This document shows positions 10,618 to 55,577 of a stretch of DNA of 64,000 nt, one piece after another. Within the stretch, counting starts at the first letter, position 1. Each line of letters starts with the position of its first letter. The DNA lies in assembly GCA_963845755.1 (NCBI GenBank), contig CAWJTV010000020.1, forward strand, positions 256,001 to 320,000. Direction: 5' to 3'. The position numbers and the translations under genes are program-made. Below the pieces are notes generated by a model. The model had not been told where the DNA came from. It made no database searches and saw only the letters and a list, made by a program, of their open reading frames with translations. The DNA is from an uncultured Planctomycetota bacterium. Its GTDB lineage: Bacteria > Planctomycetota > Planctomycetia > Isosphaerales > Isosphaeraceae.

Positions 10618-10746
10618 TCACGTGCGCTCGCGCGCTCATTCCCCCGCCACCCAGCCATCACCCATCGAGAAAAACCAACTGCCCCGCGCGAACATTCTGT
10701 CCCATTGGGGTACAACCTGATTGGACATCATGGGGGCGCAGGGCCA

Positions 10747-13613: not shown

Positions 13614-13641
13614 TTGACGGACCATCCATTCTGGCTATAGT
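13614..13641 (+). promoter_or_regulatory. Sigma70-like promoter candidate
   Basis: TTGACG-N16-TATAGT preceded by an AT-rich tract. Confidence 0.4.
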
Positions 13642-13670
13642 TGTAGTCGTGCGACGTTCTCCGTAACCTT

Positions 13671-14131: not shown

Positions 14132-14246
14132 GATTGAGGCGAAGCGCGAAGAAGGTGCGGCATTTGAAGCCGCCCGATGTCGAACGGATGATTCGGCAAG
14201 GAAGCGGCAACTCCCTCATCGAATTCCCGACCTGAGGAGCTCAGCG

Positions 14247-35700: not shown

Positions 35701-38700
35701 GTAGTCCTCGCTGGTGAAGATCGGAGGCGTCGAGCCGGATGAGTCCTCGAATCCCAGCGAGTCGCCTCCGCCGCCGCCGTTGAACGACAGGTTGATCGGT
35801 ACGGCCCCCCCGTCGGACCCGAACAACGGGTTCCCGTGGGCGAAATCGACGTCCAGATTATCGGCGCCCGTTCCGGTGGTGAGTCCGAAGGAAACGAGGG
35901 CACTGGGGTCGTAGGAGAGCCCACCGCCCGGCAGCACGCCGTCCAGGTCGGCCATATTCCCGTTCATCTCCAGGAGCATGTTACCAAACGAAGACGTTTC
36001 CGCCGAACCATCGACGTTCAGGATGGTGGAATCCGGAGCCCCGGTGACGGAGATGCCGGCGTCGAGGTTCGCGAGGCTGCCATCGTCGCCGATGTCGACC
36101 GTGTTGGGATCACCTTGCGCTCCCGGCTGGTCATCGATGACCAGCGAGCCATCGGCGGTGACGTTCTCGACAAGAACGGTGTTGCCATTGCCCCCAAGCT
36201 GGATGGTATTGACCGTCCCCGGCGTGGTCCCGTTGATGGTGAGAGTCTGACCGCTGGTATCGGGCCCGAAGTACCAGAATGTGAGACTCTGGAGTCCGGT
36301 CGCGTTCGTAGCCGGGGGCTGAACGTACGTCGGGTTGGTGACGTCCCTCAAATCGACCAGGACGTCGGCCTTGTTGGCGAAATCCATCGGCGTGAATACG
36401 GGCGGGATGTCGCCGCTGGAGATCTCGTCGGTTGACAGCGAGCCGATGGCCGGGCCGGTCGTGACGTGAATGACCTGGGCATTCGAGGGTGCGTCGAAGC
36501 GGTAACTGGATACCGGGACCGTATCGGTGATCGAGGCCAAATTGCTGAATTGCACGGTCGTGAACACCGAGCCTATTCCGAACGCCAACTCGGCGGCATC
36601 GGCACCCAGGTAGGCCCAGTCCTCGGCTCCGAACGGCGTCGGGCCGGGTAGCTCGCCCTGGAGGATCAGGGCGTTGTTCACTCCCTGCATTCCCTCGAAA
36701 TCGAAGATAGAGGGTACTGGGTTTCCCTGGCTGAAATCCACCATCATGGTGTTGGACGAGCCGGAGCCCGTCGCCAGGGTCACATAGCTGACCGTGCTCG
36801 GGTCGAAGCTGATCGTCGCGGCGGAAACACCGGTCAAGTCGCTGAGATTGGTCGTGCTGTTGTACTCCAGCAGCGGCGTCGTGGAGTTCGTATCACTCGA
36901 GTCGTCGATGGTCAGACTCGTGGTGCCGGACAGATCCCCATGCACCCTAACGGCACCCAGACCCGACGCGGGGTGGGATTCGTTGCCCAGCGTCATCCAG
37001 TCGGTCTTGCCCGTGCCGGGGTTGGTCTCGAGATTCGTGGTGGCCGTTGTGGGCGTGCCGGTGACGCTCCAGGTGTCGCCTCCGCTACTCCCCTGGATCG
37101 TCAGGCCGGTCAACCCCGTCAAACCGCTATAGCTGACACTGGGCGTCTCGCCGATGGAGAATCCCATGCTGGTGAGGTCGTAGGAGGCCGACGCCGTGCT
37201 GGCGGAATCGTCGATCGTGAGCGAGGCAGAACCGCTGCCCTGAACGTTGACATTGCCGGTCAGCCCGGATGCCGGGTCGATCTCGCTGCCCACCATGACC
37301 GAGTCGGGATTGTCGTTCGGTGCCGACACATTGATCACCGTCGCATCCGCGACCAACTGCGGCGAACCGGTGACGGTGATGTCATTTCCACCCGCGGTAC
37401 TGGCATCGAAGGTCAGCCCGCTGAGTACCGCGGTGTTGTAGACGAAACCCGGCCCGTTGATGAAGCTCAGCGACGTCGCATCGATGCCGACGGTTTGGGG
37501 ACTGGCGTCGCCCGAGTCATCGACGGTCAGGCTGGTCGAGCCGGGAAACTCGGTGAAGAAGTTGATACTTCCCAGCCCGCTGGCGGGGCTCAGGACGTCG
37601 CCCACGGTGACCGCATTGGTCGCCCCCGTGCCCATGTCGAGACTCAGCGGGTTGGACGCTCCGGGCGTGCCGGTCACGGTCACCAGGTTCGATCCCGCGT
37701 CGCTGGCTTTGAGCGACACGATCGAGAGGCTTGCGCCGCCGTAATTGAAGGTTGGCCCACCGCTAAAGCCGACAGCCGTGCCCGTCACACCGATGGTCTT
37801 GCCGCTGACATCGGCCGAGTCGTCGATCCACACGCCGGTCTGACCGACGACACCGGTCGTCACCGTGACATTGCCCAGGCCGTTGGCGGCGTCCGAGGCA
37901 TCGCCCAGGTTGACGGTGTTGCCGGTGGCCGTGCCCATGTCGAGCATCAGTGGGTTGGTTGTCACAGGTGTGCCTGTCACGATCACCGTGTTTTGATTCG
38001 CGTCGCTAGCGTCGAAGGTCAACGTGGTGAGGTCGGCATTCGTGTAGTCGAAGTCCGTCGCCCCGAAGATGGTGACCGCTGTCGGCGTCACGCCGACCTC
38101 CTGGCCGGATCCATCGTCCGAGTCGTCGATCGTCAGGCTGGTCGAGCCGCTGACCGGTGGTACGCCGACGGTTGATGTCGTGACCGTGACATTACCCAGG
38201 TCGGCGGCGGCATCGGTGGCATCGCCCAGGTTGACCGCGTTGCCCGTGCCTGTGCCCATGGCGAGGGTGATCGGGGCCAGCCCCGGCGACTCCGAGGGCG
38301 AGCCGGTGGCGTTGACCGTGTTCGAGCCCTGGTCGCTGGCGTCGAACGTCAAGCTGCCGATGGTCGCCGGGCTGAGGTCGAAGGCCGGTCCGCCGGTGAA
38401 GCTGAATTGAGTCGAGGAGATGCCGATGGTCGCAGTGCTCGCCGTGTCGGCCGAGTCGTCGATCGTCAGGTCGTACGGGGCGCTGCTACCGGACCCGATC
38501 GAGATGCTCCCCAGACCGCTGGCGGCGTGGGAAGCGTCGCCCAGGTTCATCGTATTGGTGCCACCAGCGAATGCTGAGATGACCATCGGGCTGGCCGGCG
38601 GCAGCGTGGGCATGCCGGTGACGTTGATCGTGTTCCCGCCATTGTTGTTGAGATCCAGTTCCAGGCTGGAGAGCGTCGCGCCGCCGTAGGTGACGGTCGG

Positions 38701-40579
38701 GCCGCCGATGAGGCTCACCGCCGACGCCGTCACGCCGTAGGTCCAGCTACCATTGCCGACCGAGTCGTCGATGGTTAGTCCGGTCGTGCCGCCCGCCCCG
38801 GTCGTCAGCGTGACGTCGCCGTAGGCGTCGGCCCGGGGGCCGAAATCGACGGAGTTCCCCGTCCCCGCGCCCATGGCCAGGGCCATCGCGTTGGTCGCGG
38901 TTGGCGTGCCTGTGACATCGACGGTGTTCGAGCCGGCGTCGGCGGCATCGAAGGTCAAGCCGGAGAGGGTTGCCCCGCCGTAGGTGAACACCGGCGCGGT
39001 GTTAATGGTGAGGGTGGAGCTGGCTACGGCGACGGTCTGGCCGGTCGTATCGTCCGAGTCGTCGATCGTCAGTCCGGTGGTGCCCGTGACCGTCACGTCC
39101 CCCAGGTTGCTGGCGGCGTGGGAGGCGTCGCCGAGATTCACCGCGTTGCTCGTCGAGCCGCCCATGGCCACCGAGGTGGTGGCCCCGGTGGGCGTTCCTG
39201 TCACCAACACCGTGTCGGCTCCGGAGCCGAACGCCGCCGTCAGCGAGCTCAGGTTCGCGTAATTGATCGCCGCCGGCGAGGTCCCGCTGAACTGCGTGGC
39301 GGTGAGGGTCGAGGTGCTGGAGCTGGCGTCGGCCGAATCGTCGATCGCCAGGGCGGTCCAGCCTCCGACGTTGTCGAGGCTGACAATCCCCGAGATGCCG
39401 CTGAGCAGGCCGACGTCGCCGATGTTGACGATATCGCTGCCGCCCTGACCGTGGATCGTGAGGGGATTACTTGTGGTGGTCCCCTGTGCATCGACCGTAT
39501 CGCCGCCCGTGCCGGTGTTCAGGGTCGTGGGGCCGGGCGTGCCGGTCACGATGAACGTGTTGCCCCCCGAACCGCCGCTGATGGTCAGCGACCCGGGGCC
39601 GGAGAAGTTCACCGCGGCCGGGGCCAGGCCCGCCGAGATCCCACTCGAACTGATGGTGGCGGTGGTGGCGGTGGTGTCGGCCGAGTCGTCGATCGCCACG
39701 GTCGTCGACGCGCTCGTGTTCGCGACGGTGACGGCCGCCAGGATCCCCTGGGCACTGCCGGCGTTGCCGACGTTGACGGCCTCGGCCCCTGACCCCTGGA
39801 CGCTCAGCGGCGCCCCTGCGGTCGTGGAGTGGACATCGACGGTGTCGCCGGTGCTATTCCCCTGGATCGTGGTCGACGTTTCGGTGCCGTCGACGGTAAA
39901 GGTGTCCGCACCCGTCCCCGCAAAGAGCGACAGGGCTGATAACGTCGCATTGGTGAGGTCGATCGAGGCCGGCGTGATGCCGGTCACGGACGTGCTCGTG
40001 ACGCTGACATTCCGCCCGGTGGCGTCGTTCTGGTCATCGACCGCGGCGGTCGAAGTTCCCACGGTCGAACCGATCGTAACGGTCCCGTTGATCGCCTGGC
40101 TGGTGCCGAAGCCAATCTGGAATAAGTCGCTGCCCCCGGTCGAGTCGTGGAGGGTGGTGGGATTGTTGTTGGAGATCAGGATCAGGGAGCTGTCGCCCCC
40201 ATGCATGTCGAAGTCCAGCGAGGTCGTGTTCGTGGTCGTGATGGTGTTCGTGCCGTTGCCGGTCACGATGCCGGTGCCGTTATTGGTGACGTTGATCACG
40301 TCAGCGAGGTCGGTGATCGTATAGACGCCGCTCGTGTAGGAGACGTCCACCGTGGTCGGCGTATCGGCCACGAAGGCGAAGGCGTCGCTCGCGTCGATGG
40401 TCACCGCCGCGGCCAGGAGGGTCCTCTCTTCGAGGGCATCGATCAGGAGGCGAGGCTCGACCGCGCGTTCGACGCCTTGCGTCGCGGGCGACCGGCTTGG
40501 TCCACGGCTGGCGAAGACTTCTGGACATGTCTCGTCGCGTCCCCAAGAGCCGGCCGTGGTTGCCAAAGGTCTCCGACAT
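32758..40579 (-). CDS. Giant surface/adhesin-like protein (~2600 aa) with beta-rich repeats, PKD-like and Ig-like domains
   Basis: LEERTLLA planctomycete export motif; ~100 aa LTIDDS..TGTP repeats; (D/N)WGD / DYGDG domains; DSGISDSDGITNVTTPTFVG Ig-like domain; frameshift near the N-terminus. Confidence 0.85.
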
Positions 40580-41257
40580 GGTGCAAATCTCCGAAGGAGG
40601 AAAAGCGTTCAGGGAGTTACAGCGACCCATGTGTCTCTTGGGTGCGCACTGCGGTCGGCCCGGCGGACGGCCGGTCTCGACGACTCCCGATGTTATTCGT
40701 CACGAACGAACAGTCCGATTCGCCCGATCGGCCATCTCTGGTCGGGGCCGACTCGTACGATGGCCGAACCGATGGGCGAAGGAAGCAAACCTGCCGCCCC
40801 GAGCGGGTGGGCGGAGTTTCTCGATCGGCGTGGTCTTTCGTCCTCTCCACACGGTAGGGCTCGACGTCCCGCAACAGGGCTCCCCGTCCAAGACGAGCCC
40901 GCGACCCGACTGGCCCCCTCTTCAAAGCGATAGGACGTCGCGCGTTCTTTGTCTACTTACCGTTGGATAAATACATTCCCTTTTTTTCTCTCAAAAGGTC
41001 GCGATGGACGGTCGATCCCGGACAATCTGAACCTTGGGCAAGGTCCACCTTCTTCCCTGACATGGCCCCACTCTGCCACGTCATGGAGGATTCCGACTTT
41101 CCCGGGCGTCCGATCCCACATTGATGGCCGGGATGGGCCCTTCCGGCGAGGTCGCGTCTCGTCGCGCCATTAACAAACAATGGTTCATCCGGATCCGTGC
41201 GCGCCCGGTCTTGAAAACGGTGGAGTTGTGATCCGGCCTCGCCCACGGCGAATCCTT

Positions 41258-41338
41258 GGCCCGAAGGGGCCGCAACATAACAGCCCGGGGCAACGCCCCG
41301 GGAACGGAGCCCCCAACGGGAAAATGCCCTGAAAGGGC
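41258..41338. repeat. REP-like composite palindrome
   Basis: GGCCCGAAGGGGC, CCCGGGGCAACGCCCCGGG and GCCCTGAAAGGGC hairpins. Confidence 0.55.
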
Positions 41339-41385
41339 GACACAGGTGCAGGCCGCCGGCCCGGTTTGTCTGGCCCCTACCTTCT

Positions 41386-41496
41386 AGACATATGTCCGAC
41401 CGCATCCTCGGCACGCAAAAAAGCCGGTCGGACAGCATGTTTCAGAAGGCTGATCCGGACCATATGTTGTCCAGCGGCACGACATATGTCCGGATC
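41386..41496. repeat. Two tandem inverted-repeat pairs sharing an ACATATGTCCG core
   Basis: 41386-41402 pairs with 41425-41442; 41452-41470 pairs with 41479-41496. Confidence 0.55.
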
Positions 41497-42117
41497 TCTG
41501 GGGCTTTTGGAACAGACTCTCAAAACCGGTAGGTGCATCGACCCAGGAGTGTCCCAGTCTCGCGTCCAAATCGTTCGAGGTCCAGCACCAACTGTACGCC
41601 TGAATCACCGATGATGAGAGTCAAAATCCATCAGAGAAGGTATCCCGCTCGCTAGTTCATCAAGCCGAAGCGACGGCCGAAGTCAGACATCTCACCACAG
41701 GCCCGATCATGTGTCCGGGAAGCACCAAAATCGGCCAGGAGAAGCCAGCCTGCTCATCCCGCCCGCCGGTGAATGAAGGGGCGTCACGACCGAAATGAGC
41801 CTCCAATCCGACTCGACCGTGGGACGAGCAGCTAATCCTCGGACCGGCGCCCTTGGGGTTGACGGCCAGGGCTCCCCGAATCCGGTCCGGGCCGAGTCAA
41901 GGATCCAGTACGGGGGCACCCGAACGACCAACGACAGATCAGTGCTCATGCTTGACCAGAGGCCAAGTGGACAAGCAATGTCCGTCCGTGGTGATTTTTT
42001 CGCCACAAATTCCGACTCGTCGGTGAGGATCCCCGGCGCCACTCTTGCGATGATCCGACTACGACTACCATCGTCGCATGCATGATGCGAATGAGCTTTC
42101 CGACATCTCCCAGCTAC

Positions 42118-42183: not shown

Positions 42184-42981
42184 TTACGGATACCAACTGG
42201 GGTTGGTGAGGATCACTCCGCCGGGATACATGCCCAGGTAGGCGTCGGGCTTGAGCACGGACTTGGCGTGGCCATCGAGATAGAGGACGTTCGAGCTGCC
42301 GTGCCGATTCCAGGGGATCCATTTGTCGAGCGTGACGGTGCCGAGCCAGATGTCGTAGTCGTCCTGCCTCGGATCAGTGGCCGCGACCGGGTCGTTGATA
42401 TTGGCGTCCATGACCGCGCCGTCACGCTCGTTCATGCAGACGAAATTCGACGTTCCGATGTCATACTGGAAACGGGGAAACGTCCAGCGGCCATAGCGGA
42501 CGGTCTTGTGGCTGAGCTGCGAGTTCAGCAGGTAGCTCGTCCGGTTGGTGATGCCATCGATTAGCCCGGTCGAGGGGTCGATATAAGGCTGAACGACCGA
42601 AATGTCGGACATGCAGCGGAAGATTTTCTCATCGGCAATCTGGGTTCCGCCTTTGGCGATCGCGTCGTTGGCGAAGGTCGGGTTGACATAGGGCATGATC
42701 TTGTCTTCCCAATAGATCTCCGCGAACGACTCGGCGTTGTGTACCTCGGAGAGGCTGTCGGCGTTGAACGGGTGATGGAGGAAGAACTGCCCGTTCCAAT
42801 CGTCGAAGTATTGCATGATGCCCAGGCCGATCTGATGCAGATGGCTCTGGCAATCCATGCGGCGGGCCGCCTCGCGTGCGCCTTGCACGGCGGGCAGCAA
42901 GAGCGCGACCAAGACCGAGATGACGGCGATCACCACCAGCAACTCAATCAGGGTGAATCCCGATCGGATTCGATGATTCAT
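42184..42981 (-). CDS. Short prepilin-type DUF1559 / H-X9-DG protein
   Basis: [49 protein letters not shown]. Confidence 0.9.
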
Positions 42982-43625
42982 GGAGTCTAACTCTCTCGAG
43001 AAGGGTTGGCGGCGCCGCGTGTTACGAACGGTCAAAAGATACTACCCGTGCGACGGGTTCGCAAGAGGGTGACCCGAATGCGGGCCGCAGAGACAGTGCG
43101 TGATGGCTGCGATGCCGATTGATCGAACGCAATGTCGGCGTTTGTGGGAGCATTGCTCGCATGATCCTCCCGGAGTAGCGTCGGGCTATTCACATGCGCG
43201 AACGACGAGGCGGCAATCTATTCAAGCGACTGCGCCCTCCCGGCCTCGCGGGTTCAACTTTTTTCGGGGGCACGGCGGTGTGCGGGGCCTTCTTGCTTCG
43301 CCGACAGCGTGAAGCCGGTGATAGGGGACAGGCCGAGAAAGCTGTTTTTGGGCATCAATGAAGTGAACGCGGTCGACCTGAAAACCTCGGCCGGGAATCG
43401 GGAGACGGGCTGCTCGCCGGCCTTCCCACAAGTCTGAGTTGGCTCGTCCCCTCACGAGCGGTCCCTGCAAACGGCCGAATTCGTACGTTCGCGGATACCG
43501 GCGACTTCTCGCTCGCCCGTCGGGCGCCTGGCCGCGAGTTCTCGGCCCCGTTACGGCTGAAATCCGCCGACGAAAACCACCCTCTGGCGGAGGCTGTCTC
43601 GGCGCGTTATGATCCCCGGCTGTCT

Positions 43626-43656
43626 CGGTAGCACGATTTTCAGAATCGTATTATCG
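43626..43656. promoter_or_regulatory. NikR-like operator palindrome
   Basis: CGGTAGCACGATT-ttcag-AATCGTATTATCG (10/13 arm pairs), 40 nt upstream of the DUF1559 ATG. Confidence 0.6.
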
Positions 43657-43696
43657 GGCCGAGTTGCTCTCGAATGTCCACCTATGGGAGCGTTTT

Positions 43697-44731
43697 ATGA
43701 GACATCGACACGGCTTCACACTGATCGAACTGCTGGTGGTGATTGCCATCATTGCCGTGCTCATCGCCTTGCTGTTGCCGGCGGTCCAGGCGGCCCGCGA
43801 GGCGGCCCGCCGCATCCAGTGCACCAACAACCTCAAGCAGATCGGCCTCGCCTTGCACAACTATCACAGCGCCCTGGGCTCCTTCCCGCCGGGCGGGATG
43901 GTGGCCCCGCTGACCAACTGGTGGGTCGCGCAGGGCCTGACCTGGCCCGGCCACTTCCGTTACTCGACCCCCGTCATGATCATGCCGTTCATGGAGCAGA
44001 CCACCGGCTTCAACGCCATGAACTTCCTGATCCCGTTGTACGACCTCAACGGCGACGACATGCCCCAGAACACCACCGTCTACTCCATGCAGGTGAACGC
44101 GTTCCTCTGCCCGAGCGACGTGCGCAATTCAATCGAGATCGAATTCGAGATGCCGTGCAACTACGCCGCGAACTCGGGCAACGGATTGCCGGGCGGCTTC
44201 AGCCTCCCGGCCTCGTACGGAACGCCCAACGGGCCGTTCTACTCCAACTCGGGGACGACGATGGCCAACATGATCGATGGCTCGAGCAACACGGCGGCCT
44301 TCGGCGAGAGCATCATCGGCACGAATTCGAATATCCCCCCGTCGCCGGGCGCGCCGAACCCCCAGGAGATCGTGGTCCAACTGCCCTCGGGCATCAACAC
44401 GTTCGCCGATACGTTCACGTACATCCCCCTGGTCGCGTCCGATTGCCTCGCCTCGACGAACTACCGCTGGGACCGCCAGACGAACTGGATCGACGCGGAC
44501 TACCGGCACACGCTCTACGATCATTACCTGACCCCGAACAGCACGATGTATGACTGCCTTCGCGGGCCGATGCACGGCTGGCGGACGGCGCGGAGCCGCC
44601 ACCCGGGCGGGGTGAACATCCTCTTCGTCGATGGCAGCGTCCACTTCATGAAGAACTCGATCAACCTCGTGGCCTGGCAGGGCATTGCCACCGTCGCGGG
44701 CGGCGAGGTCATCAGCTCGGACTCCTACTAA
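43697..44731 (+). CDS. DUF1559 prepilin-type protein
   Basis: GFTLIELL..; [30 protein letters not shown]. Confidence 0.95.
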   Translation: MRHRHGFTLIELLVVIAIIAVLIALLLPAVQAAREAARRIQCTNNLKQIGLALHNYHSALGSFPPGGMVAPLTNWWVAQGLTWPGHFRYSTPVMIMPFMEQTTGFNAMNFLIPLYDLNGDDMPQNTTVYSMQVNAFLCPSDVRNSIEIEFEMPCNYAANSGNGLPGGFSLPASYGTPNGPFYSNSGTTMANMIDGSSNTAAFGESIIGTNSNIPPSPGAPNPQEIVVQLPSGINTFADTFTYIPLVASDCLASTNYRWDRQTNWIDADYRHTLYDHYLTPNSTMYDCLRGPMHGWRTARSRHPGGVNILFVDGSVHFMKNSINLVAWQGIATVAGGEVISSDSY

Positions 44732-44749
44732 GTGAAAGGGGCAAGACCG

Positions 44750-45863
44750 ATGCGCAGGACCAAGGTTCTCATGCTGGCGGTGGCCGCGGCGCTGCTGCGC
44801 GGACGTGGCGAGTGCTCACGAGCTCTGGTTTCACCCGGGCGCCGGAGGCCAGTCCTCCTCGGTGCGATTATCCTTCGGCGACTCGCCCGACCTCGGCGAG
44901 GCGGAACGCGTCGCGGAGATCGCCCACACGAAGGTCTGGGCCGACGGGCAACCGCTGGACGTCGAGCGTCTGCCGGATGGCCTCGAGGCTCGTCTGGGGG
45001 ATCGTCGCCCCGCCGTGATCAGCGCGTTCGCCGACCGCGGCATCGTCAACTACATGGGCGACTCGTTCATCATCTACCTGGCGGCCTATTCCCAGACGCA
45101 CGCGATCGAGGCCAATCCGGCCCGGAAGCTGGGCCTCGGCGACGATCAGGTCCGGCTCCTGTTGATCGCCAAGGGGGACGGGCCGCCGGTGGTGCAGGCC
45201 CTGTGGCGGGGGAAGCCCGCGGCGAACGCAGCCGTGAAGCTCTTTCACGGCCGCGAAACGCCCACCGAGCTGCGGACGGATGCCCGCGGCGAGATCCCGT
45301 GCCCGGATCTGAGAGAAGGCCCATGGTCGCTGCTCGTCGACGTCAGGGACAAGACGCCGGGCCAGCGAGACGGTCGGGATTACACACACGTCCGCTACAA
45401 GGCCACGCTGGCGATCGGCGCGGAAGCGGCCTTCGCCCCGGCCGTCGCCGCCTGCCTGGCCCGGGTCAAGGAGATCCACGGCGCGACCGGTCCCTGGGCG
45501 GTCGCCGGCTATCGGATTGGCGAGCGTGCGCTCAAGGAGCTGGGGCTTCCCCGGCAGAGCCATGACCTGGACGTGGTCCACCGATGCCCGGCCGAGGTGC
45601 AGTATTCCTGCGTCGCCGACGGCGTCCAGGCGGCGACCGGGGCCAGCCCCGGCAAGCTGAACCTGCACATCGAGCAAGCCACCCGCGAGGATCTCCGCAC
45701 CGTGATCCGCAACAAGAAGTCCGGGCGTACCCTGACGTTCACCCTCAAGCTGGAGTTCGCCCATTCGATCACAGACCTGCCGTTCGATCGGCTCGAAGCC
45801 GAAGGGCGGCGGGTCGCCGCGCTGGCCGATGACGTCATCTTCCGGATCGCCGAATCAAAGTGA
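44750..45863 (+). CDS. Exported DUF4198-like / FmdE-domain fusion protein; frameshift in the signal peptide
   Basis: ASA-HELW mature N-terminal His; GKPAANAAV..RTDARG; C-terminal IHGATGPWAVAGYRIG..SCVADGVQAATGASPGKLNL (FmdE-like). Confidence 0.7.
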
Positions 45864-45892
45864 GGGACGGACTTTCAGCCGGGAGGAGGCCG

Positions 45893-46357
45893 ATGCGTAC
45901 ATGCCGGAGGCGGCCATTGTCGCGGGGCCGCATTGTTGTTACGTCCTTGGCGAGCTGGGCCGTGTTGTCCCTGCTCGGCCTGGCCGGTTGTGGCGGCCCC
46001 GGCCCTTATACGGGCTCGCTCTATCCGGTCAAGGGTCAGGTGCTGCTGGCCGATGGCACGCCCCTCAATGGCGGCACGGTCCGATTCATCCCGACGCGGG
46101 GCGGACTGCCTGCATCGGGCACAATCGCAGCAGACGGTACGTTTTCGCTGAAGTCGAAGAGCCGCGACGGGGCCGCCCCGGGCGAGTACAAGGTCCGGAT
46201 CGAGCCGAGTGCGGAGTTGCTCGTGAAGAAAGGGAGAACGGCCCCGAAGCTGCCCTTCGCCTCGAAATATCGCGAGTACGACGGCAACACCGGTCTGACG
46301 GCCACGATCAACGCCGGGGAGACGCAGCTCGAGCCATTCCGGCTCGAGGCCAAGTGA
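45893..46357 (+). CDS. DUF1559-associated lipoprotein (carboxypeptidase-regulatory-like fold)
   Basis: LAGC lipobox; YPVKGQV..DGTPL..GTIAADGTF..GAAPGEYKVRI. Confidence 0.85.
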   Translation: MRTCRRRPLSRGRIVVTSLASWAVLSLLGLAGCGGPGPYTGSLYPVKGQVLLADGTPLNGGTVRFIPTRGGLPASGTIAADGTFSLKSKSRDGAAPGEYKVRIEPSAELLVKKGRTAPKLPFASKYREYDGNTGLTATINAGETQLEPFRLEAK

Positions 46358-46925
46358 CCCTCCACTGGCCTCCGGGAATTTGTCCCTGCACACTCCCGAT
46401 GCCGTGCTTGATCGTGAGATAGACGGCGAAGATCATCATCCGCAGGATCGTAAACTGGACATGGGGCACCTGCATCGCCGGGTGCTCTTGGCAAGGTTCA
46501 TCTCGACCCGCCTCCCACAGTCTAACGTGCAGGTAAGCCCTTACGCCCAAGCCTTATTCCGGTTTTCTGCTCCGATGCGACTCACGGCCAATGACCGGCC
46601 AGATGTGCGCCTGGACCCACGGTCCTGCACCACGAGACGGCCGCGTGGCACGTCGCCGCGCGGATCGCGAGGTCGGCGGTTCGGACGGTTTCCACAGGGC
46701 CCACATCGATACCGCTCTCCCCTCGACTGCTGGCAAAATCACCGGTTCGGAGGCCACAACATCCGAGTCCCGCCGTTGTCGTCAAGTCGGGTGTCGCCGT
46801 AAAATTATTCAAGGTTTTCGAAACCAGGCGGTGGATTGACAGCACAATTCTCATGTCGGATCATGAATCTAGCCCGATCTCCGGGCTCGGAATGATATGA
46901 CCTGCCCTCGGGGAATCGACTGCGA

Positions 46926-47399
46926 ATGCGTCGCCGCTCCCATCCATCCCGCACGAATGACATCGTCCGCCGGTTGCTGCCGGCGGTCGTGCTCTTCTGC
47001 GGCCTGGGAGTGGAGGGCAAGGCGGCCGAGATTTCGGTCTCTTCCGCCGGCGCGTTCGACGGCGATCACACCCAGCACTGTAGTTGTCGCGATTGCCGGA
47101 AGGGGTCCTGCTGCTGCGGCCCGCGCGGGCCGCAGACGAAAGGTGGTCGCACTAGACTACGGACCGAGCCGGTTCGGAATGGCGACGGTCCCTGCTTGAG
47201 AGCCGCCCCCTGCGGCGATTCGGGGTTGCCGGGTGCGCCGGTCCTCGGGCCGACCGGCAAGGTGGCATTCCACACGGCACAGAACTGTGTGGTCCCCTTC
47301 GCGACAGGCCACCTGCTCCCGCCGGACCGTCGTTGCGTTCTCCCATCCCGACGAGCCTCTCTTCTCGACGAGCCCCCGGAACACCTCGCCCTCGCCTGA
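46926..47399 (+). CDS. Cys-rich exported leader-like protein (CruR/DUF2946-like architecture)
   Basis: Signal-like N-terminus, [15 protein letters not shown]-terminal LLDEPPE. Confidence 0.65.
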
Positions 47400-47574
47400 T
47401 CCCAGGCCATTGCCATCGGCGTATCTCGAGCCCCGCCCGTGCGGTCGTTGTGTGCGCGCGGGACAAGGCACCGTCCGTTGCGTGATATCGCTGCGGTCCC
47501 CGATCTCCGCGGCCCTTGGGTCGTCGGCTTCACGTGGGATTGCGCCGAGCCTTCTCATTCCGGGAGTTCATCCA

Positions 47575-48582
47575 ATGCATCGTCGTCGAGCCTTCACGCT
47601 GATCGAATTGCTGGTGGTCATCGCGATCATCGCGGTGCTGATCGCCTTGCTGCTACCCGCCGTCCAGGCCGCCCGCGAGGCGGCCCGGCGCTCCCAGTGC
47701 ACCAACAACCTCAAGCAGATCGGACTCGCCCTCCACAACTACGAGGGAGTCTGGAACACGCTCCCCGCCGGACGTTACGGTTACCCTTACCTCTGGTCGT
47801 CGCTGGCCTCGCTGCTGTCCTACATCGAGGCAGCGAACATGTACAACGCGATCAACTTCTCCTTCGCCTCGGAGACCGCTCAACTCCCATATCCGGTCAA
47901 TTCCACCGTGGAGTCGGCGGCGATCGCGGTGTTCCTCTGTCCGAGCGACGGGCAGATGCGGGTGGACCCGACGAACTGGGGCGGGACGAATTATGTCTCG
48001 AATTCCGGGACGGGCACGCTCAATAACGGCAATTTCAACGTCGTCTCCGGGGCGCCCTTGCCCGACGGACCGTTCTACAACACCAGCGCCGTGCGGTTCG
48101 CCGCGATTACCGACGGTCTGAGCGGCACGGCGGGGTTCAGCGAGACGATCCTGGGCAACAATATCAATACCTCGCCCGGCAGCTCCCCGCCCTCGAACCC
48201 GAAGCGGCAATTCGCCCTGTTCAATACCTCTGAGATCCTGCTGACGTTTTCGCCGTCTTACTTCGTGCTGCCGAGCATAACAATCCCTCCCTGCGCGATT
48301 CCTGACCAGTGGTCAGGAGACCGGGGCCGCGAATGGTCGCGCGGCAGCTTCATCATGACGTCCTATAACCATTTCTACACGCCGAACAGTAAATTCCCGG
48401 ACTGCACCGACGCCGGCCGCAACGCCGCCGTGATCGGCCCGCGCAGCTTCCATCCCGGAGGAGTGAACGTCTTGCACCTCGACGGGCACGTGCAGTTTCT
48501 CAAGGACAGCGTCAATATCATCACCTTCCGGGCAATCTCGACCCGAGCGGGCGGCGAGGTCATCTCGTCGGACTCCTACTGA
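47575..48582 (+). CDS. DUF1559 prepilin-type protein
   Basis: AFTLIELL..; [33 protein letters not shown]. Confidence 0.95.
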
Positions 48583-48608
48583 TCGAATCCAAATCCTGGA
48601 GATTCATC

Positions 48609-49990
48609 ATGAGCGAGTACGACCGTCCTTCCGCGATGAGATCCTGGCCCGACTATCGGGCCGTCTGGCGATGGCACTTCTATGCGGGGTTGTTCTGCAT
48701 CCCGTTCGTCATCGTGCTCTCGATCAGCGGCTCGATCTACCTCTTCAAGACGGAGATCGAATCATGGATCGATCGCCCTTATGACCGGCTCGAGGTCACG
48801 AGGTATCCCGCCACGGCCGCCGATCAGGTCCGCGCCGCACTGGCTGCCGTGCCGGGTTCGACCCTGAACGCCTACGAGTTGCCGCAGGCCGACGATTCAG
48901 CAGTCCGCGTGATCGTGGACAGGGATGGTGAGGCGATCCGGGTGTACCTGCATCCGCAGAGCCTGGACGTCTTGAACACGGTCGCGGAGAACGATCGCTT
49001 CATGCGCATCCTGTTCCGCCTCCACGGCGAACTGCTTCTCGGCAATCGTGGCTCGGCGTTGGTGGAGCTGGCGGCCTCGTGGACGATCATCATGATCCTC
49101 ACCGGCCTGTACCTCTGGTGGCCGCGAGGGGCGATCGGTTTGCGTGGCGTGGTGTTTCCACGGCTCGGGTCCAGTTCGCGGGTGTTCTGGCGGGACATCC
49201 ACGCCGTCACCGGCGTCTGGATCTCCGCGTGGGTCCTCTTCATGCTCTTCAGCGGCCTGCCCTGGGCGAAGTTCTGGGGCGACTACTTGAAGACCGTCCG
49301 TCGGCTCACCGGCATGGCGGTCGCCCGTCAGGATTGGACGAACGGAGCCGCCTCAGCCGTGAGAACGCGAACAGCTCGTGGATCCGGAGAGTCGCACCAT
49401 GCAACCGGCCGATGGTCAGGCCAGGGGCGTGGCACGAGGAGTATTCCGAGCGACCTCACCGCCGTGGACCGAATCGTCGCAACTGTCCGCCCGCTAGGGC
49501 TGGACCCGCCGGTGGTCATCGAGCCTCCCGCCACGGGCTCCAACGACTGGGCCGCGAAGTCGATGACCCCCAACCGCCCGCGCCGGGTCGACCTCGTTGT
49601 AGACGGTAAGACCGGGGTCATCAAGGATCGCAAGGATTTCGCGGACCGGCCCTGGATCGACAGAGTCGTCGGCACCGGGGTCGCCGCTCACGAGGGCGCC
49701 TCTTCGGTTGGCCCAATCAACTCCTCGGCCTCGTCGCTGCAATCGGGCTGGTCCTTCTGAGTATCAGCTCGGTGGTCCTGTGGTGGCGCCGTCGTGAGTC
49801 CGGTGTCCTCGGCGCTCCCCAGCCGCTGGCGGCTCCCCGGTTCTCGGTCAGCCTTTTGACGCTGGTGGTGTTCTTGGGAATCTATCTCCCGTTGTTCGGT
49901 GCGTCACTCGTCCTTGTGTTGCTGCTGGAGGCGACCGTCTTGCGCCGGATCCCGCGGATACGCGAATGGCTGGGACTTTCAAGCCCTTGA
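48609..49990 (+). CDS. PepSY-associated TM helix (PepSY_TM) protein, frameshift near 49700
   Basis: VWRWHFYAGL, LHGELLLG, TGLYLWWP, RDIHAVTG, AAHEG, LWWRRR. Confidence 0.92.
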
Positions 49991-50066
49991 TACGATTCGT
50001 GGGGGCTTGTTGCGATGACGTCCGGTGAGCTGTCCGCACGACCGGATTCCGAGGCCCGGTGAATGA

Positions 50067-50264
50067 GAGCCCGTCCTGCCCGCTCCGATCACCGATTACC
50101 AACTCGCGCTTCCTGGCATTCGCCACGTGAAGGCGGCCACCTCCGTCGCGGGCGTCGTGGGGACCCTCGTTGTCTTCGGGGTCGCCTGGGGATTCGCAGG
50201 GGTATTCTCTCGGCGGTCGGCGGGGACTTCGGGCATCGCCGTCAGTGACGATTCCGGATCATGA
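50067..50264 (+). pseudogene. C-terminal remnant of a NikN/CbiN-like (PDGLE-domain) Ni/Co ECF transporter subunit
   Basis: Manual translation EPVLPAPITDYQLALPGIRHVKAATSVAGVVGTLVVFGVAWGFAG..; in-frame stop immediately upstream. Confidence 0.65.
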
Positions 50265-50311
50265 GGCAGGAGGCGGCGGGGGTGCTGTCTCTGAATTTCC
50301 TCGTGGAAAGA

Positions 50312-50341
50312 TTGACATATGTCGGACGGACGCCGTAGGCT
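50312..50341 (+). promoter_or_regulatory. Promoter candidate overlapped by a GACATATGTC palindrome
   Basis: TTGACA-N18-TAGGCT upstream of the DUF1559 at 50456. Confidence 0.4.
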
Positions 50342-50455
50342 CGTATACGGTTTCCGTTCGCCCGCCGCACGGGACGGGGTGTCAACTCCAACCCGAGCGA
50401 TCGGGTCCAGGGCCCCCCGGACAGCATCTGCGTCGTCGCATAAGAGGGACCTCTT

Positions 50456-51493
50456 ATGTTGAAGACCGGAACGCATCGCGGCTTTACGCTCATCGAGCTG
50501 CTGGTGGTGATCGCGATTATCGCCCTGCTGATCGCCCTGCTGCTACCGGCGGTTCAGGCGGCGCGCGAGGCCGCCCGCCGCATCCAGTGCACCAACAACT
50601 TGAAGCAGATCGGCCTGGCCTTGCATAACTATGAGACGGCCGCCGGGGCGCTACCCATGACGATGTCGTTGCTGGGGGCCGGCAACACGGTCTACTACGA
50701 CACCGGCTGGAGCGCCCAGGCCCGGCTCTTGCCCTACATGGAGGGGACCTCGTTGTTCAACGCGGCGAACCTCAGCGTCTTCAAGGAGGACCCCACCAAT
50801 TCCACGGTTATCTCGTTGACGGTGAACGCGTTCATCTGCCCGAGCGAGATCAAGCCGCAGGTTTCCTCGCACGATTATGGCCTCTCGGGTGTGATCAATT
50901 ACGGGGTGTGCGGGGGCGACTGGTTCGTCTGGGGTGGGTTCGGCGGGCCGTATAATCGCCAGGCGTTCGGCCCTAACCGGAGCCTGCGGCTGGCGGCGAT
51001 CACTGACGGGTTGAGCCAGACGTTGTTCGCCGCCGAGGTGAAGGCGTATCAGACCTCGTCGAACTGCCGCTTCACCACGCTGCCATCGGTCAACAACCCG
51101 AACAACATCCCGAGCCCGTACGCCGACCCGTTTCAGGTGGCGCCGGAATACGACAACGGGGTGTGCGTCACCGAGAATCAGGCGGAGTTCCACACCGAGT
51201 GGTCCGACGGGCACGTGCATGCGGCGGGGTTCACAACGGCCTGGCCTCCGAACAAGGCAATCATCGGCCGGTCGTTCTATCCGGGCATGGACCTGGACCT
51301 CAACGGCAAGAACGAGGAGAACGGCGGGCCGACCTTCTCGGCGATCAATGCCCGCAGTTATCACCCCGCCGGCGTCAACACCCTGCTGGGCGATGGCAGC
51401 GTGCGGTTCGTCAAGAGTACCATCGACGGGATGGTCTGGCGGGCCATGGGGACGGTTGCCGGCAGCGAAGTGGTCTCCTCAGATGCGTACTGA
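50456..51493 (+). CDS. DUF1559 prepilin-type protein
   Basis: GFTLIELL..; RSYHPAGVNTLLGDGSVRF..GSEVVSSDAY. Confidence 0.95.
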   Translation: MLKTGTHRGFTLIELLVVIAIIALLIALLLPAVQAAREAARRIQCTNNLKQIGLALHNYETAAGALPMTMSLLGAGNTVYYDTGWSAQARLLPYMEGTSLFNAANLSVFKEDPTNSTVISLTVNAFICPSEIKPQVSSHDYGLSGVINYGVCGGDWFVWGGFGGPYNRQAFGPNRSLRLAAITDGLSQTLFAAEVKAYQTSSNCRFTTLPSVNNPNNIPSPYADPFQVAPEYDNGVCVTENQAEFHTEWSDGHVHAAGFTTAWPPNKAIIGRSFYPGMDLDLNGKNEENGGPTFSAINARSYHPAGVNTLLGDGSVRFVKSTIDGMVWRAMGTVAGSEVVSSDAY

Positions 51494-52231
51494 TCTCGAG
51501 GCGGGAGGTGGTTCGATGGGGCGTACTCTCATTCTTTTCACCCTGCCGGTACTGCTAGGTGCCGGTTCTCAACCGACTCAGGCCCCCGACGGACCGGAGG
51601 ATAAGCGTTCGGCTCCAATCCTCGTGCGTACCTTTCCACTCGAGGCGGAAGTGCGAGAATATCGCTTCCCAGAATAAACATGATCGAACAGAGTCATGCT
51701 GTGACTCTGAAGACTGGGCCTCCTCTTGCTTGCGTCGATCCGACGACACCAGCGTGGGCCACATCCAGGGCGCGCGAGGAACCGACAGGGAGCCTCTCAA
51801 ACTGGCCCATGTCCAACAGCCAGGGACGGAAGTGATAAACCCGGCATGGTGGTTCCTCGCTCGATTGAAACGATGAACACGATCTACGCCTGCATGGCAC
51901 TTCGGTGGAGCGAGACAACGAAGAAGACGGTTTTGCACATCAGGATGGGAAGAGACTCAGTCAGGAAACACTGGTTGGTGGCGCCGGCCTGACGATCGAA
52001 CCTCGCTCTGATTTCTCGATCTGTGCCAGCCTCCCCGGGTGCTCCATAGCTCATCGATGGCGGGGATCCACACCTCTCGACAAGACGTATCTCGTTTCTT
52101 CATTAACAAACAATTACCCCAATTTAGGCCAAGCTGGCCTCGTCAACCGCGGGATTCCGACGATAATGCCCCCGGCCCCGAAAGGATTCGGTCGCACCTC
52201 AATTCGCCAGAATGCTGGAAGAGGTCGTGTG

Positions 52232-52892: not shown

Positions 52893-54322
52893 ATGCCGAT
52901 TGATATCGATCGTGGTCGGGGCGAGGCGGCGGCATCGGTGCGGCGCGGGGACGGCCTTGGATCGGGTCGCCGCCGGCGATCGGTTCCTCATCGCCGGTAC
53001 CTGCCGGTTTCTCGGACGATCTCGACCGGGCGTCCGGGATTGTATCCCGGTGAACCGGAGAACTGCCGGCGCCGGCTGCGCGAGTTCCTCGTGATCATGG
53101 CCCAGCTCGGGCTGATGCTGGCCGTCTTCGACGCCTACCGGCTCGAGACCCGATCGTTCCGGATCCTCGTCCTCCTCACGATCGCGACGCTGCCGGTCCA
53201 CTACCTGGCGACCTATCGCTGGAAGAAACCGCTATTCGTGGCCATCTCGATCCTGGGAATGGTCCTCGTCAATGGCCTGTCCACGTCGGGCGGCATCGTG
53301 GCAGTCTCGGCGGTGCTCCTGGCGCTCGCCGCGGCGCCGATCGCCTGGTGGATTCGCGTCGGATTGATCGCCGCTCTGGCCATGTCCCTGGCCGTGATCC
53401 GGTCGCGGGCCGGTTCCGCGCCGAGGCGATCGCGACGGGGGTCATCCCGGTCGTCGCGACGATGTTCATGTTCCGGATGATGGTTTATCTCTACGAGCGA
53501 AAGCATGCCCAAGGCCGCGAGCCCCTCGTCGATACACTCGGTTACTTCTTCCTCCTGCCCAATTATGTCTTCCCGCATTTCCCCGTGGTCGATTATCGGA
53601 CGTTCCAGCGCGGTTATTTCGCGCACGGCATCCACGAGATCCAGAGGGAGGGCCTGGCGATGATGTCGCGGGGGACGACACATCTGCTTCTCTATCGTTT
53701 GATCGACCGCCTGTTGCTGATTTCGCCCGATGCGGTGCACGACCCCCTGAGCCTCGCGGGCTACCTGGCCTGCAATTACTTGCTGTATCTCCGGGTGTCG
53801 GGCCAGTTTCATATCGCCTGCGGCATGCTCCACCTGTTCGGCTTCCGGCTTCCCGAGACCCACCACCACTTCCTGCTGGCGACCGGTTTCACGGACTACT
53901 GGCGACGAATTAACATCTACTGGAAGGACTTCATGGTGCGGCTCGTGTTCAACCCGGTGGTTTTCCGCCTCAAGCGGCGACCCCAACCCGTGGCGCTGGC
54001 GGTGGCGACAGCGGTGGTGTTCGTGGTCACCTGGCTCCTCCACGCCTACCAATCGTTCTGGCTGCGGGGCACCTGGGGCTTCAGCGCGCCCGACGCCCTG
54101 TTCTGGGGCATCCTGGGCTTCCTGGTGCTGATCAACGTCCAGCTCGACGCGCGGCGGGGTGCGCGGCGAGTCGGGGGGTCTTCACGGTCGCCGTTGTGGT
54201 CGGCGAAACGCGCGGCTCGGATCGCCGGCACGTTCACGACGATCGCCTTGCTTTGGTCGCTCTGGTCAAGCCCGAACGTCGGGGCCTGGGTGGATATGAT
54301 GCGCCGGGGACTTGGGATCTGA
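52893..54322 (+). CDS. MBOAT family O-acyltransferase (AlgI/DltB-like), frameshift near 53415; start uncertain
   Basis: FTDYWRRINIYWKDF, TWLLH catalytic His region, multiple TM helices. Confidence 0.85.
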
Positions 54323-54443
54323 GTTGGTGGCGAGGCGTTCGGAAATCCCCCCGCCGAGGGACCGACTGGCGTTTCTGTCGGAGCGGCGGACCATTGGCGC
54401 TCATCGCCGTCACCCTATCACTTCGGTCGATGGAGTACGAACC

Positions 54444-55577
54444 ATGTCTCATACGTCGGCGACGGCCCTGCGATTGCTCGTGACCGTGGCGATGCTGGGC
54501 TGGCGCTGTGTGCCGCGCGAATGTGCCCCGCACGCGGTGGATCGGGTGCGATGGGCGCTCGGCTGTGACGAGATCGAGAATCTCGACCGCTTGCTGAGCC
54601 AATCCGAGCCCGATCGGATGGATCAGGGCTATTACAACCAACTCCTCGACACCGGCCTGGAGGCCGGCCTGTCGCCGCCGATCTGCAAGCGCGTCCCGGA
54701 GTTGCGTGAGGTCGTGCTGAGATCGGATCTCTCGATCGTGCGAGCCGACGGGACGACATGGAGCACCAATGAGTTGGGGATGCGCGATCGGCCGTATGCG
54801 GCGTCCAAGCCATCGGGCACGTTCCGAATGGCGATGGCCGGGGACTCGATTGGCGTCGGGCTAGGCGTCGGCGACGGCCGGGGTTTCGAGCCGGCGCTCG
54901 AACGCTGGCTCGACGAGCACTCGCGCCGGCACGGCGGACCGACGGTCGAGATCCTGAATCTCGCCCTGCCCGGCCGCAGCCCCGGCCAGCGCTGGGATCA
55001 CTTCCAGAAAGTCGGCTGGGCGATGGAGCCCGACCTCATCCTGTTCGAGGCGACCGCCGCGGATGTCGGCTGGGACCAGCGCCGGCTCGCGGACCTGCTG
55101 CCCCGCGGGATCGGCTGGGACTCCACGCTCTACGGCGAGGTCTTGAAGCGTTCGGGCATCCGGCCGGGCGCGACGAGCGAGCAATACGCGCGGGCGCTGT
55201 GGCCGTATCGCTGGGAACTGGTCGCGGCGGTCTACCGCTCCGTCGCCGCCGACTGCCGGTCTCGCGGCGTGCCCTGCCTCTGGGTCTTGATCCCCCGGGT
55301 CGGTCGCGTTGTGGGGCCGGCCGAGCACCGGCGACTCCTCGACCTGGCCCGGGCCGCGGGTTTCGCGGCGGTCGTGGACATTTCGGATTCCTTCGACGGG
55401 TTCGATCCGGCCGATCTGGTGATCCACCCCAGCGACTTCCACCCCAACGCCGAGGGCCATGCCATCCTGGCCCGCCGACTCGCCGATGCCCTTTGGCCGC
55501 AACCTGTGCTGGGCGGGCTCCGGGGTCGCGATTCGAGCGAGGATGCGTCGCTTCAGGTGGGGGGCAATCTCCGATGA
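54444..55577 (+). CDS. SGNH/GDSL hydrolase-like protein
   Basis: TNELGMRD, AGDSIG, DFHPNAEGH (DxHP). Confidence 0.85.
   Translation: MSHTSATALRLLVTVAMLGWRCVPRECAPHAVDRVRWALGCDEIENLDRLLSQSEPDRMDQGYYNQLLDTGLEAGLSPPICKRVPELREVVLRSDLSIVRADGTTWSTNELGMRDRPYAASKPSGTFRMAMAGDSIGVGLGVGDGRGFEPALERWLDEHSRRHGGPTVEILNLALPGRSPGQRWDHFQKVGWAMEPDLILFEATAADVGWDQRRLADLLPRGIGWDSTLYGEVLKRSGIRPGATSEQYARALWPYRWELVAAVYRSVAADCRSRGVPCLWVLIPRVGRVVGPAEHRRLLDLARAAGFAAVVDISDSFDGFDPADLVIHPSDFHPNAEGHAILARRLADALWPQPVLGGLRGRDSSEDASLQVGGNLR

Follow-up and report, generated by a model that had tools for sequence, protein, structure and literature searches.

Two neighbouring operons that pair pilin-like DUF1559 genes with metal-handling genes in an Isosphaeraceae bacterium

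How might chelated metals pass the outer membrane in diderm bacteria that lack TonB-dependent receptors? The question is raised by a 9.3 kb region (positions 42,184 to 51,493) within a 64,000-nucleotide stretch of DNA from an uncultured soil bacterium of the Planctomycetota, family Isosphaeraceae (contig CAWJTV010000020.1 of assembly GCA_963845755.1, G000:C20:256001-320000 in our numbering). This whole stretch is referred to below as the window; the genome comprises 14.27 Mb in 49 contigs and is 87.9% complete. In the region, genes of the DUF1559 family stand among genes with known metal chemistry, and a first-pass annotation had proposed that the DUF1559 proteins act as the outer capture module of a metal-acquisition system. 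Our preferred reading, to which we assign a probability of roughly one half, is that two neighbouring operons pair pilin-like DUF1559 genes of a single clade with metal-handling genes and that the DUF1559 proteins, as subunits of pilus-like filaments, replace an outer-membrane receptor that is missing from the genome.

DUF1559 is the largest paralog family of Planctomycetes, with 74 copies in Rhodopirellula baltica (PMC2754498) and 68 copies, two of them essential, in Planctopirus limnophila (PMC10632474). Beyond how many copies there are, these papers report only that expression is related to stress and that two copies are essential, and they assign the family no function. A clade-specific place in operons with known metal chemistry makes a role for DUF1559 testable.

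Genes in the window were called from a listing of open reading frames (ORFs) combined with Pfam and NCBIfam profile scans, applying Pfam cut-offs of 23.3 bits for DUF1559 (PF07596), 28.8 bits for PepSY_TM (PF03929), 34 bits for DUF4198 (PF10670) and 22.9 bits for FmdE (PF02663). Comparisons were made against a set of 201 genomes of the same class, including 48 of the window's own family.

DUF1559 genes upstream of PepSY_TM and DUF4198-type genes

One putative operon (operon A) would run from a Cys-rich leader ORF through the DUF1559 gene D3 to a PepSY_TM gene, with D3 in the place of a TonB-dependent transporter. Its features are the following:

46836-46864, + strand: promoter-like TTGACA-17-GATCAT ahead of the Cys-rich ORF, matching the consensus at 10/12 positions
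46926-47399, + strand: Cys-rich, putatively exported leader-type ORF of 157 amino acids, conserved in relatives, with no Pfam match
47400-47574, + strand: spacer of 175 nt between leader ORF and D3, a candidate regulatory region by length and composition (relatives' spacers ~198-292 nt)
47575-48582, + strand: D3, DUF1559 prepilin-like gene directly upstream of PepSY_TM (DUF1559 163 bits, H-X9-DG 37.7 bits)
48609-49990, + strand: PepSY_TM, a membrane protein of the haem-reductase type (190.1 bits)

PepSY_TM matches occur in 50 of the 201 genomes of the class. When we inspected 15 kb neighbourhoods around the 23 best matches outside the window's own genome (seven in family f1, eight in f2, seven in f76 and one in f91), a DUF1559 gene was found directly upstream of PepSY_TM on the same strand in 21 of them, and the best window match of this upstream gene was D3 in all 21. 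The baseline for such adjacency is low: among 11,368 ORFs of the window's own genome that are not themselves DUF1559, only 98 (0.86%) have a same-strand DUF1559 ORF ending at most 1.5 kb upstream. For these neighbourhoods (L063-L085) the Pfam scan covered the first 120 of 236 called genes, L075-L085 were checked with window-derived queries only, and gene calling based on GC content at third codon positions performed badly on the low-GC loci L066, L081, L082 and L085.

More distant PepSY_TM paralogs are also preceded by DUF1559 in three of five loci, as well as in all three loci of genome G141. Gene orders in G141 include esterase, DUF1559, enterochelin esterase and PepSY_TM (L097, G141:C1:781600-790700); isochorismatase, DUF1559, lipoprotein and PepSY_TM (L096); and DUF1559, lipoprotein, a small DUF4198-like protein, a beta-lactamase-fold protein, PepSY_TM and an FtsX permease (L095).

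A second putative operon (operon B) would consist of the DUF1559 gene D2, a gene fusing a DUF4198-like domain to an FmdE domain, and a lipoprotein gene:

43664-44731, + strand: D2, DUF1559 prepilin-like gene, probable start 43697 (DUF1559 170.9 bits, H-X9-DG 43.8 bits)
44750-45863, + strand: DUF4198-like/FmdE fusion, predicted to be secreted, with a 352-amino-acid ORF at 44805-45863 (FmdE 61.1 bits; DUF4198 23.1 bits, cut-off 34)
45860-46357, + strand: small lipoprotein with an LAGC lipobox, probable start 45893 (CarboxypepD_reg 22.5 bits, below cut-off)

The start of the lipoprotein gene overlaps the stop of the fusion gene by 4 bases. Here too the DUF1559 gene holds a conserved position, being found directly upstream of a gene with the DUF4198-type N-domain in 21 of 24 loci outside the window's own genome; D2 orthologs specifically are found directly upstream of the fusion gene in three loci (L034-L036). 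While the N-domain alone is widespread in the class, genes for the full fusion turned up in just three genomes of the window's family, G203, G227 and G223 (the last with two copies). Where the longer N-domain partners preceded by DUF1559 were scanned (10 of the 21 such loci), all proved to be DUF4198+Kelch or DUF4198+DUF3386 proteins, three of them above the DUF4198 cut-off. The linkage beyond copy number that the first-pass annotation had named as a test is therefore present at both operons.

That annotation had further asked whether particular DUF1559 clades co-occur with PepSY_TM, DUF4198 or FmdE genes, and in trees built with FastTree and with IQ-TREE the linked genes do group in particular clades. 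The FastTree analysis included 132 DUF1559 proteins, comprising 84 full-length paralogs of the window's own genome and the proteins from the fetched loci. A single clade of 32 of these 132 rows (support 96) holds all 22 PepSY-adjacent proteins, D2 with three fusion-adjacent orthologs, two FmdE-adjacent proteins and three encoded near PepSY_TM. Only three of the 84 own paralogs (D2, D3 and own_C11_464868) fall inside it. D2 groups with the fusion-adjacent orthologs at support 100, within the PepSY-linked clade, and 14 genes upstream of DUF4198+Kelch form a separate clade (support 82). A quick IQ-TREE run on 78 rows recovers a joint clade of 28 rows, with an SH-like approximate likelihood ratio test (SH-aLRT) value of 86.

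Could the sheer abundance of the family account for these arrangements? Some 148-163 DUF1559 matches lie in the 14.27 Mb, one per ~90-96 kb, and four such genes in 9.3 kb are far above a random spread, but clusters also exist elsewhere in the genome. The clustering might be functionless, a product of about 150 copies and of tandem duplication that put four of them near metal genes by chance. The remaining features of the region lend this explanation some further support:

42184-43035, - strand: D1, divergent short pilin-like gene, probable start 42981 (N_methyl 31 bits; DUF1559 profile positions 1-32 of 268 only)
50456-51493, + strand: D4, DUF1559 (161.7 bits, H-X9-DG 39.9 bits)
51516-51677, + strand: beta-propeller stub of 53 codons, in which the first ~35 and last ~9 residues are joined (MGRTLILFTL...EVREYRFPE, compared with the 465-amino-acid ORF L001:6862-8259)

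The stub has no Pfam match. The early count of four DUF1559 genes in about 9 kb stands for D2, D3 and D4, whose matches span profile positions 1-266 and which all carry H-X9-DG (TIGR04294); D1 is the divergent member, for which no H-X9-DG match is listed. D1 belongs to a subfamily of its own that adjoins PepSY_TM in one of 24 loci outside the window's genome and has neither DUF1559 nor PepSY_TM within 1.5 kb in 15 of them, and we rejected it as a part of the system for want of any conserved linkage. The D4 protein is 99% identical to that of a gene on contig C42 (DNA identity 90.5% over 1369 nt including flanks), which has the gene of a secreted stand-alone FmdE protein on one side and that of a beta-propeller on the other. 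No metal gene lies beside D4 in the window, and its standing as an independent member is not supported, D4 being a duplicated copy of the C42 gene with a broken neighbour. The C42 locus (L001, C42:390001-406996) is itself bordered at 10016-15012 by transposase-like ORFs and an ORF resembling a group II intron reverse transcriptase, as judged by eye.

D1 and D4 should thus be dropped from the proposed system, and the membership once ascribed to all four genes is retained for D2 and D3. For these two, chance is contradicted by adjacency in 21 of 23 loci at PepSY_TM and in 21 of 24 at the DUF4198-type genes, ranging over 36-83% protein identity and four families, against the 0.86% baseline, and by the clade-specific partners; we regard a functionless clustering as highly improbable.

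Receptor exchange and the metal-handling partners

The first-pass annotation had remarked on the lack of a TonB-dependent receptor in the window, and this absence extends to the whole genome, at its 87.9% completeness: the receptor barrel (PF00593), Plug (PF07715) and TonB_C (PF03544) have 0 matches each. The barrel was found in none of the 48 genomes of the family. Elsewhere in the class, where 55 of the 201 genomes have receptor barrels, four genomes (G152, G167, G198 and G246) hold both a receptor and a PepSY_TM ortholog, but never close together: the two are separated by over 200 kb or lie on different contigs. Five full-length PepSY_TM loci come from other classes of the phylum, and none of them has a DUF1559 gene within ~3.4 kb; a TonB receptor or Plug gene is instead found directly upstream of PepSY_TM in three of the five, with ExbB downstream in two of those three. 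The same slot beside PepSY_TM is thus filled by either gene type: some lineages have a TonB receptor there, while the window's class has DUF1559.

The arrangement in these three loci is that of FoxA-FoxB-type pairs, in which PepSY_TM lies directly downstream of a gene for outer-membrane passage (bioRxiv 10.1101/2021.01.28.428567; PMC13038864), as it does downstream of D3. Unlike FoxA-FoxB systems, the window's genome has no receptor, Plug or TonB match. PepSY_TM proteins have been described as haem-dependent metal reductases (PMC13038864). The presence of the PepSY_TM gene was confirmed by our scan, and four of its His residues (H23, H139, H198 and H362) are invariant in 17 orthologs, appearing in the window copy as WRWHF, RLHGE, RDIH and AHEG; by analogy, they may serve as haem ligands. 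Similarity to FoxB (7abw) is weak (E 6e-4).

Another parallel to operon A is provided by the Bordetella pertussis cruR-crtA-crpH operon (bp2923-bfrG-bp2921; PMC9426467, PMC13038864), which has the same three-gene order: a Cys-containing leader with Pro-Pro, an envelope-crossing gene and a PepSY_TM gene with four conserved His. In Bordetella, the middle gene is a TonB-dependent transporter; in the window, it is DUF1559. CruR has an export signal, a CXXC motif and, three residues from its end, RAPP, with ~45 residues between the two motifs (constant within one or two) and a 162-bp spacer behind the gene; its nascent chain senses copper, upon which stalling is relieved and Rho terminates transcription (PMC9426467). 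AhpC/TSA genes accompany cruR operons (PMC9426467), and such genes are also found near the operon in the window's relative G203. There, at L067 (G203:C2:1466700-1481900), the leader-D3-PepSY_TM ortholog is flanked by two AhpC/TSA peroxiredoxin genes and a thioredoxin-trypsin fusion gene.

The Cys-rich leader ORF noted in the first pass is indeed present and is conserved in relatives. It carries CxC..C..SCCC, PCxxxPCG and, seven residues before the stop, a C-terminal xPP motif. Six loci from the same family have a homolog ahead of a D3-type gene or of PepSY_TM, and two paralogs in the window's own genome (on contigs C43 and C9) each stand ahead of another DUF1559 gene. All nine sequences share a hydrophobic N-terminus, CxC..C..(S/P)CCC and PCxxxPCG, and eight of the nine have (D/E/K/R)PP 5-10 residues before the stop. 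In these eight, the distance from PCG to xPP is 54 residues (six sequences) or 55 (two), across an intervening stretch that is poorly conserved. The spacers that follow the leader homologs measure ~175-292 nt, that of the window being 175 nt against the 162 bp in Bordetella. As read from its motifs, the leader has a CruR-like architecture; where CruR has CXXC and RAPP ~45 residues apart, it has PCG and (D/E/K/R)PP at a distance of 54-55.

Two further loci of the window's genome hold leader-type ORFs. At C9:132929-137322 (L087:1929-6322), genes for a cupredoxin, a cytochrome c, the leader paralog and DUF1559 follow one another on one strand. At C11:86595-87002 (L098:2595-3002), a separate, CruR-like leader ORF of 135 amino acids scores 21 bits against DUF2946 (cut-off 23.7) and has CLIC and RAPP 43 residues apart; it lies directly ahead of a frameshift-split DUF1559 gene (L098:3393-4497), which is followed by a HEAT-repeat protein, and the locus has no PepSY_TM.

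We suggest that the leader would sense a thiophilic metal, most likely copper, during its own translation and would control D3 and PepSY_TM through its C-terminal PP stalling motif, held at a fixed distance from the Cys motif. In the periplasm, PepSY_TM could then act as a reductase of Cu(II) or chelated Fe(III). Copper is our first guess for the metal of operon A and chelated iron our second, the latter because characterised PepSY_TM proteins reduce ferric siderophores and because siderophore esterases occur in such loci in G141. The window's genome has four haem-copper oxidase loci. If true, this would make the leader ORF an addition to the metal-sensing arrest peptides, a class described only recently.

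In operon B, the fusion may bind a divalent metal of the Ni, Zn or Co type through an N-terminal His. Two periplasmic DUF4198 proteins provide precedents: Zcp of Neisseria gonorrhoeae binds Zn by three His (PMC12663993), and in Ideonella sakaiensis IsDUF4198 uses its N-terminal His, a residue kept in 79% of members, to bind Ni at 18 nM (PMC12537917). The fusion resembles both in being a predicted secreted protein whose orthologs would begin with His once the predicted signal peptide is removed. In the three fusion orthologs, the signal peptide is followed in one frame by A|HELWF(H/Q), which gives an N-terminal His with the cleavage site judged by eye; the window copy reads ...ASAHELWFH, with the signal peptide in another frame. 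A HELWFH N-terminus in the fusion and its orthologs fits the N-terminal-His nickel binding of IsDUF4198. Unlike Zcp and IsDUF4198, the window copy falls below the DUF4198 cut-off and is fused to an FmdE domain.

The scans thus uphold the presence of the fusion gene through its FmdE part, with the DUF4198 part below threshold. Relatives of the N-domain do exceed the DUF4198 cut-off (L061 with 43.2 bits over positions 2-208, L059 with 38.8 and L058 with 35.2 bits), and since these homologs share the same N-domain, a relation of the window fusion to DUF4198 is likely but distant. The FmdE domain occupies residues 224-318, with 2gvi as a match at E 8.6e-5. In three of six loci (C42, L038 and L040) a stand-alone FmdE gene adjoins a DUF1559 gene.

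The lipoprotein, likewise correctly predicted at the outset, has 12 more paralogs in the genome, at least eight of which adjoin a DUF1559 gene by their coordinates, and in L031, L095 and L096 a gene of this type stands behind DUF1559 and ahead of PepSY_TM. The lipoprotein is a generic partner of DUF1559 genes.

Pilin-like proteins and their possible roles

What, then, might D2 and D3 contribute to the two cassettes? Both N_methyl (PF07963) and TIGR02532 match D1-D4, which have a class III signal motif of the form G/A|FTLIELL. Across 54 paralogs this entire motif is invariant, including E11, which corresponds to Glu5 (+5) of the mature protein, and D180/G181, E190, H293 and D303/G304 are invariant as well. 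Glu5 and the class III signal motif are a requirement of filament assembly.

A model of D3 made with AlphaFold2 from the 54-row alignment (predicted local distance difference test, pLDDT, 88.6; predicted template modelling score, pTM, 0.86) has an N-terminal helix of 52 residues joined to a large mixed head; an earlier model from a 19-row alignment, at pLDDT 40, was unusable. Sequence searches of the PDB with DUF1559 return pilin N-termini only. A structural search with VIA-align against representatives gave 24 rows at Z >= 2; type IV pilins, minor pilins and pseudopilins account for 22 of them. With such proteins (PilA4, 6xxd; EpsG, 4lw9; PulG, 5wda; and the DNA-binding minor pilin ComP, 5hz7) DUF1559 shares the class III motif with Glu5 and, judging by the D3 model, may share an N-terminal helix packed on a beta-sheet head. 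Unlike those pilins, DUF1559, as known here from sequence and model, has a head two to three times larger, an H-X9-DG C-terminus and ~150 paralogs per genome. The genome also encodes candidate pilus or secretion machinery, namely four secretin loci, three prepilin peptidase matches and 15 T2SSE-type ATPase matches.

On the preferred reading, D3 and D2 would serve the envelope-crossing or capture step of the two metal-handling cassettes, in which a type IV pilus-like filament containing them is predicted to carry the metal or its chelate through the envelope. Inward transport of a ligand by a pilin is known from competence pili, which take up DNA as they retract. A more far-reaching version, which we advance only tentatively, is that the Planctomycetia of this family gave up TonB transport and import scarce metals by retractile pilus-like filaments whose ~150 DUF1559 paralogs act as ligand-specific receptors, with the leaders forming a new metal-sensing stalling family that arose apart from CruR. 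As part of this tentative version, the window would hold two such cassettes, one of the copper or iron type with a reductase and one of the nickel or zinc type with a DUF4198 binder.

Conserved adjacency and clade structure would agree just as well with D2 and D3 never leaving the inner membrane. Anchored there by their N-terminal helix, they could act as periplasmic substrate-binding or docking partners that, for example, hand a chelate to PepSY_TM, with the outer membrane crossed via porins or by another route. The Pfam name of the family, solute-binding protein (PMC2754498), agrees with such a role, as do the ~280-residue head, much larger than that of major pilins, and the Ala at position -1 of the cleavage site in D3 and many orthologs. 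Despite that name, no periplasmic-binding-protein fold appears among the 24 rows at Z >= 2, 22 of which are pilins. The invariance of Glu5 and the class III motif across 54 paralogs also speaks against permanent anchoring, and, as the genome has no match to TonB, Plug or the receptor barrel, the outer-membrane step would be left without an explanation. We consider inner-membrane anchoring rather unlikely. A complex prediction for PepSY_TM with its DUF1559 neighbour (the L063 pair) gave a score of 0.00 in two runs made without controls and is evidence neither way.

The fold matches to EpsG and PulG would also suit a different possibility, in which a type II secretion-like machine uses each DUF1559 protein as a cargo-specific pseudopilin to export its neighbour or place it on the surface, so that the metal link would come from the cargo and not the pilin. 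In operon B and its relatives the partners (DUF4198+Kelch, DUF4198+FmdE and small lipoproteins) are either secreted or lipoproteins, and secretins and many T2SSE ATPases are at hand in the genome. The best-conserved partner, however, is PepSY_TM, which as a polytopic inner-membrane protein cannot be secretion cargo. The slot in question is held by an importer, the TonB receptor, in other classes, and the siderophore-degrading esterases beside DUF1559 in G141 likewise point to import. Secretion of this kind strikes us as improbable.

A number of results weigh against the preferred reading of receptor replacement by filament subunits. With regard to the fold, the best matches have low scores (PilA4 Z 4.8, EpsG 3.9, ComP 3.7 and PulG 3.4), which makes the pilin-fold signal consistent but weak, and a Foldseek search of the PDB with the D3 model aligned the N-terminal pilin helix only, with nothing at E <= 0.001. 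Within the PepSY-linked clade, the only invariant Cys and His are the family-wide C42, C122 and H293, so that direct binding of metal ions by D3 is without sequence support. The genomic linkage has its own limits: L064 and L068 have no adjacent DUF1559 gene and a homolog of the Cys-rich ORF occupies the slot there, which indicates that the reductase can stand alone, and because orthologous loci share ancestry, the locus counts are not independent events.

Clade membership, moreover, does not predict neighbours everywhere, as own_C11_464868 falls in the metal clade with no metal gene nearby and own_C36_447275, of the DUF4198-linked clade, is followed by PSCyt2, PSD1 and DUF1501 with no DUF4198 gene; the joint IQ-TREE clade also includes one DUF4198+Kelch-linked row. 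Both the lipoprotein type and DUF1559 genes occur beside many non-metal genes, and the DUF1559 family overall is therefore not metal-specific. In the fusion, the DUF4198 match of the window copy covers profile positions 151-208 only and at 23.1 bits stays below the cut-off of 34, and the HGHxCP of 2gvi and 2glz is replaced by HGATGP in its FmdE domain.

The leader, finally, had been set beside the DUF2946 (PF11162) leaders of metal-uptake loci in the first-pass annotation. No Pfam family, DUF2946 included, was found at E <= 10 for three members tried, and a DUF2946 search of the window's own genome at E <= 10 matched none of the three Cys-rich paralogs. The leader family lacks RAPP, and CxxC is not conserved in it. 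With no DUF2946 match, we read the leader as an analog of CruR and not as a member of that family. The ESM Atlas returned unnamed clusters only for the Cys-rich ORF, along with CzcI at 0.90, a kind of match often due to chance.

Regulatory sites, sequence defects and flanking features

Two elements of the first-pass annotation that pointed to nickel were not borne out. The supposed NikN-like remnant corresponds to six ORFs of 46036-46854, none of which has a Pfam family at E <= 1, and this spacer is unique in the genome. The NikR-like palindrome, searched as GTATGA-N16-TCATAC with at most three mismatches, has six matches in the window against 8.7 expected. A link to nikMNQO and NikR is accordingly not supported, with no NikN/CbiN component found and the operator pattern not above chance. 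Inverted repeats in the spacers are short, GC-rich or imperfect only, and no Rfam family reaches its gathering score anywhere in the window, which argues that there is no riboswitch here. Promoter-like sites in the region number three against 2.0 expected, by consensus match only.

Two genes of the proposed operons have broken frames. The PepSY_TM frame breaks near 49693, and the last transmembrane part (profile positions 263-295) resumes in the frame of 49694. A contig from run X1, a soil metagenome, is identical over 49649-49889 except that it carries one additional G behind 49693; this G completes the codon starting at 49692 and joins both frames, which indicates that PepSY_TM is intact (~461 codons) and that the break is an assembly error. 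The same run has two additional bases (GC) behind 47541, in the region between leader and D3. In the fusion gene as assembled, a good signal peptide, MRRTKVLMLAVAAALL (ATG at 44750), and the mature part (frame of 44805) lie in different frames. Coverage of the region by the three soil-metagenome DNA runs is patchy and does not reach this apparent frame break at ~44790-44805. In keeping with an assembly that carries indel errors, many DUF1559 and COX1 matches elsewhere in the genome are also divided over different frames.

Downstream of the region, window positions 53348-55577 (+ strand) hold a 324-amino-acid multi-pass membrane ORF without a Pfam match, followed by an ORF resembling a GDSL-like lipase/acylhydrolase (30.9 bits, below cut-off). 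On the other side, a 2602-amino-acid ORF (32758-40566, - strand) with Thr/Gly/Ser/Asp repeats, whose C-terminal repeat units look Ig-like by eye, ends 1.6 kb from D1. Window positions 41182-41505 contain a repeated element of ~200-320 nt, with copies at 96-98% identity on contigs C33, C29 (two), C9, C15 and C42 and many further, weaker copies. One copy of this element lies just upstream of the C9 leader paralog, and another adjoins a lipoprotein paralog on C15.

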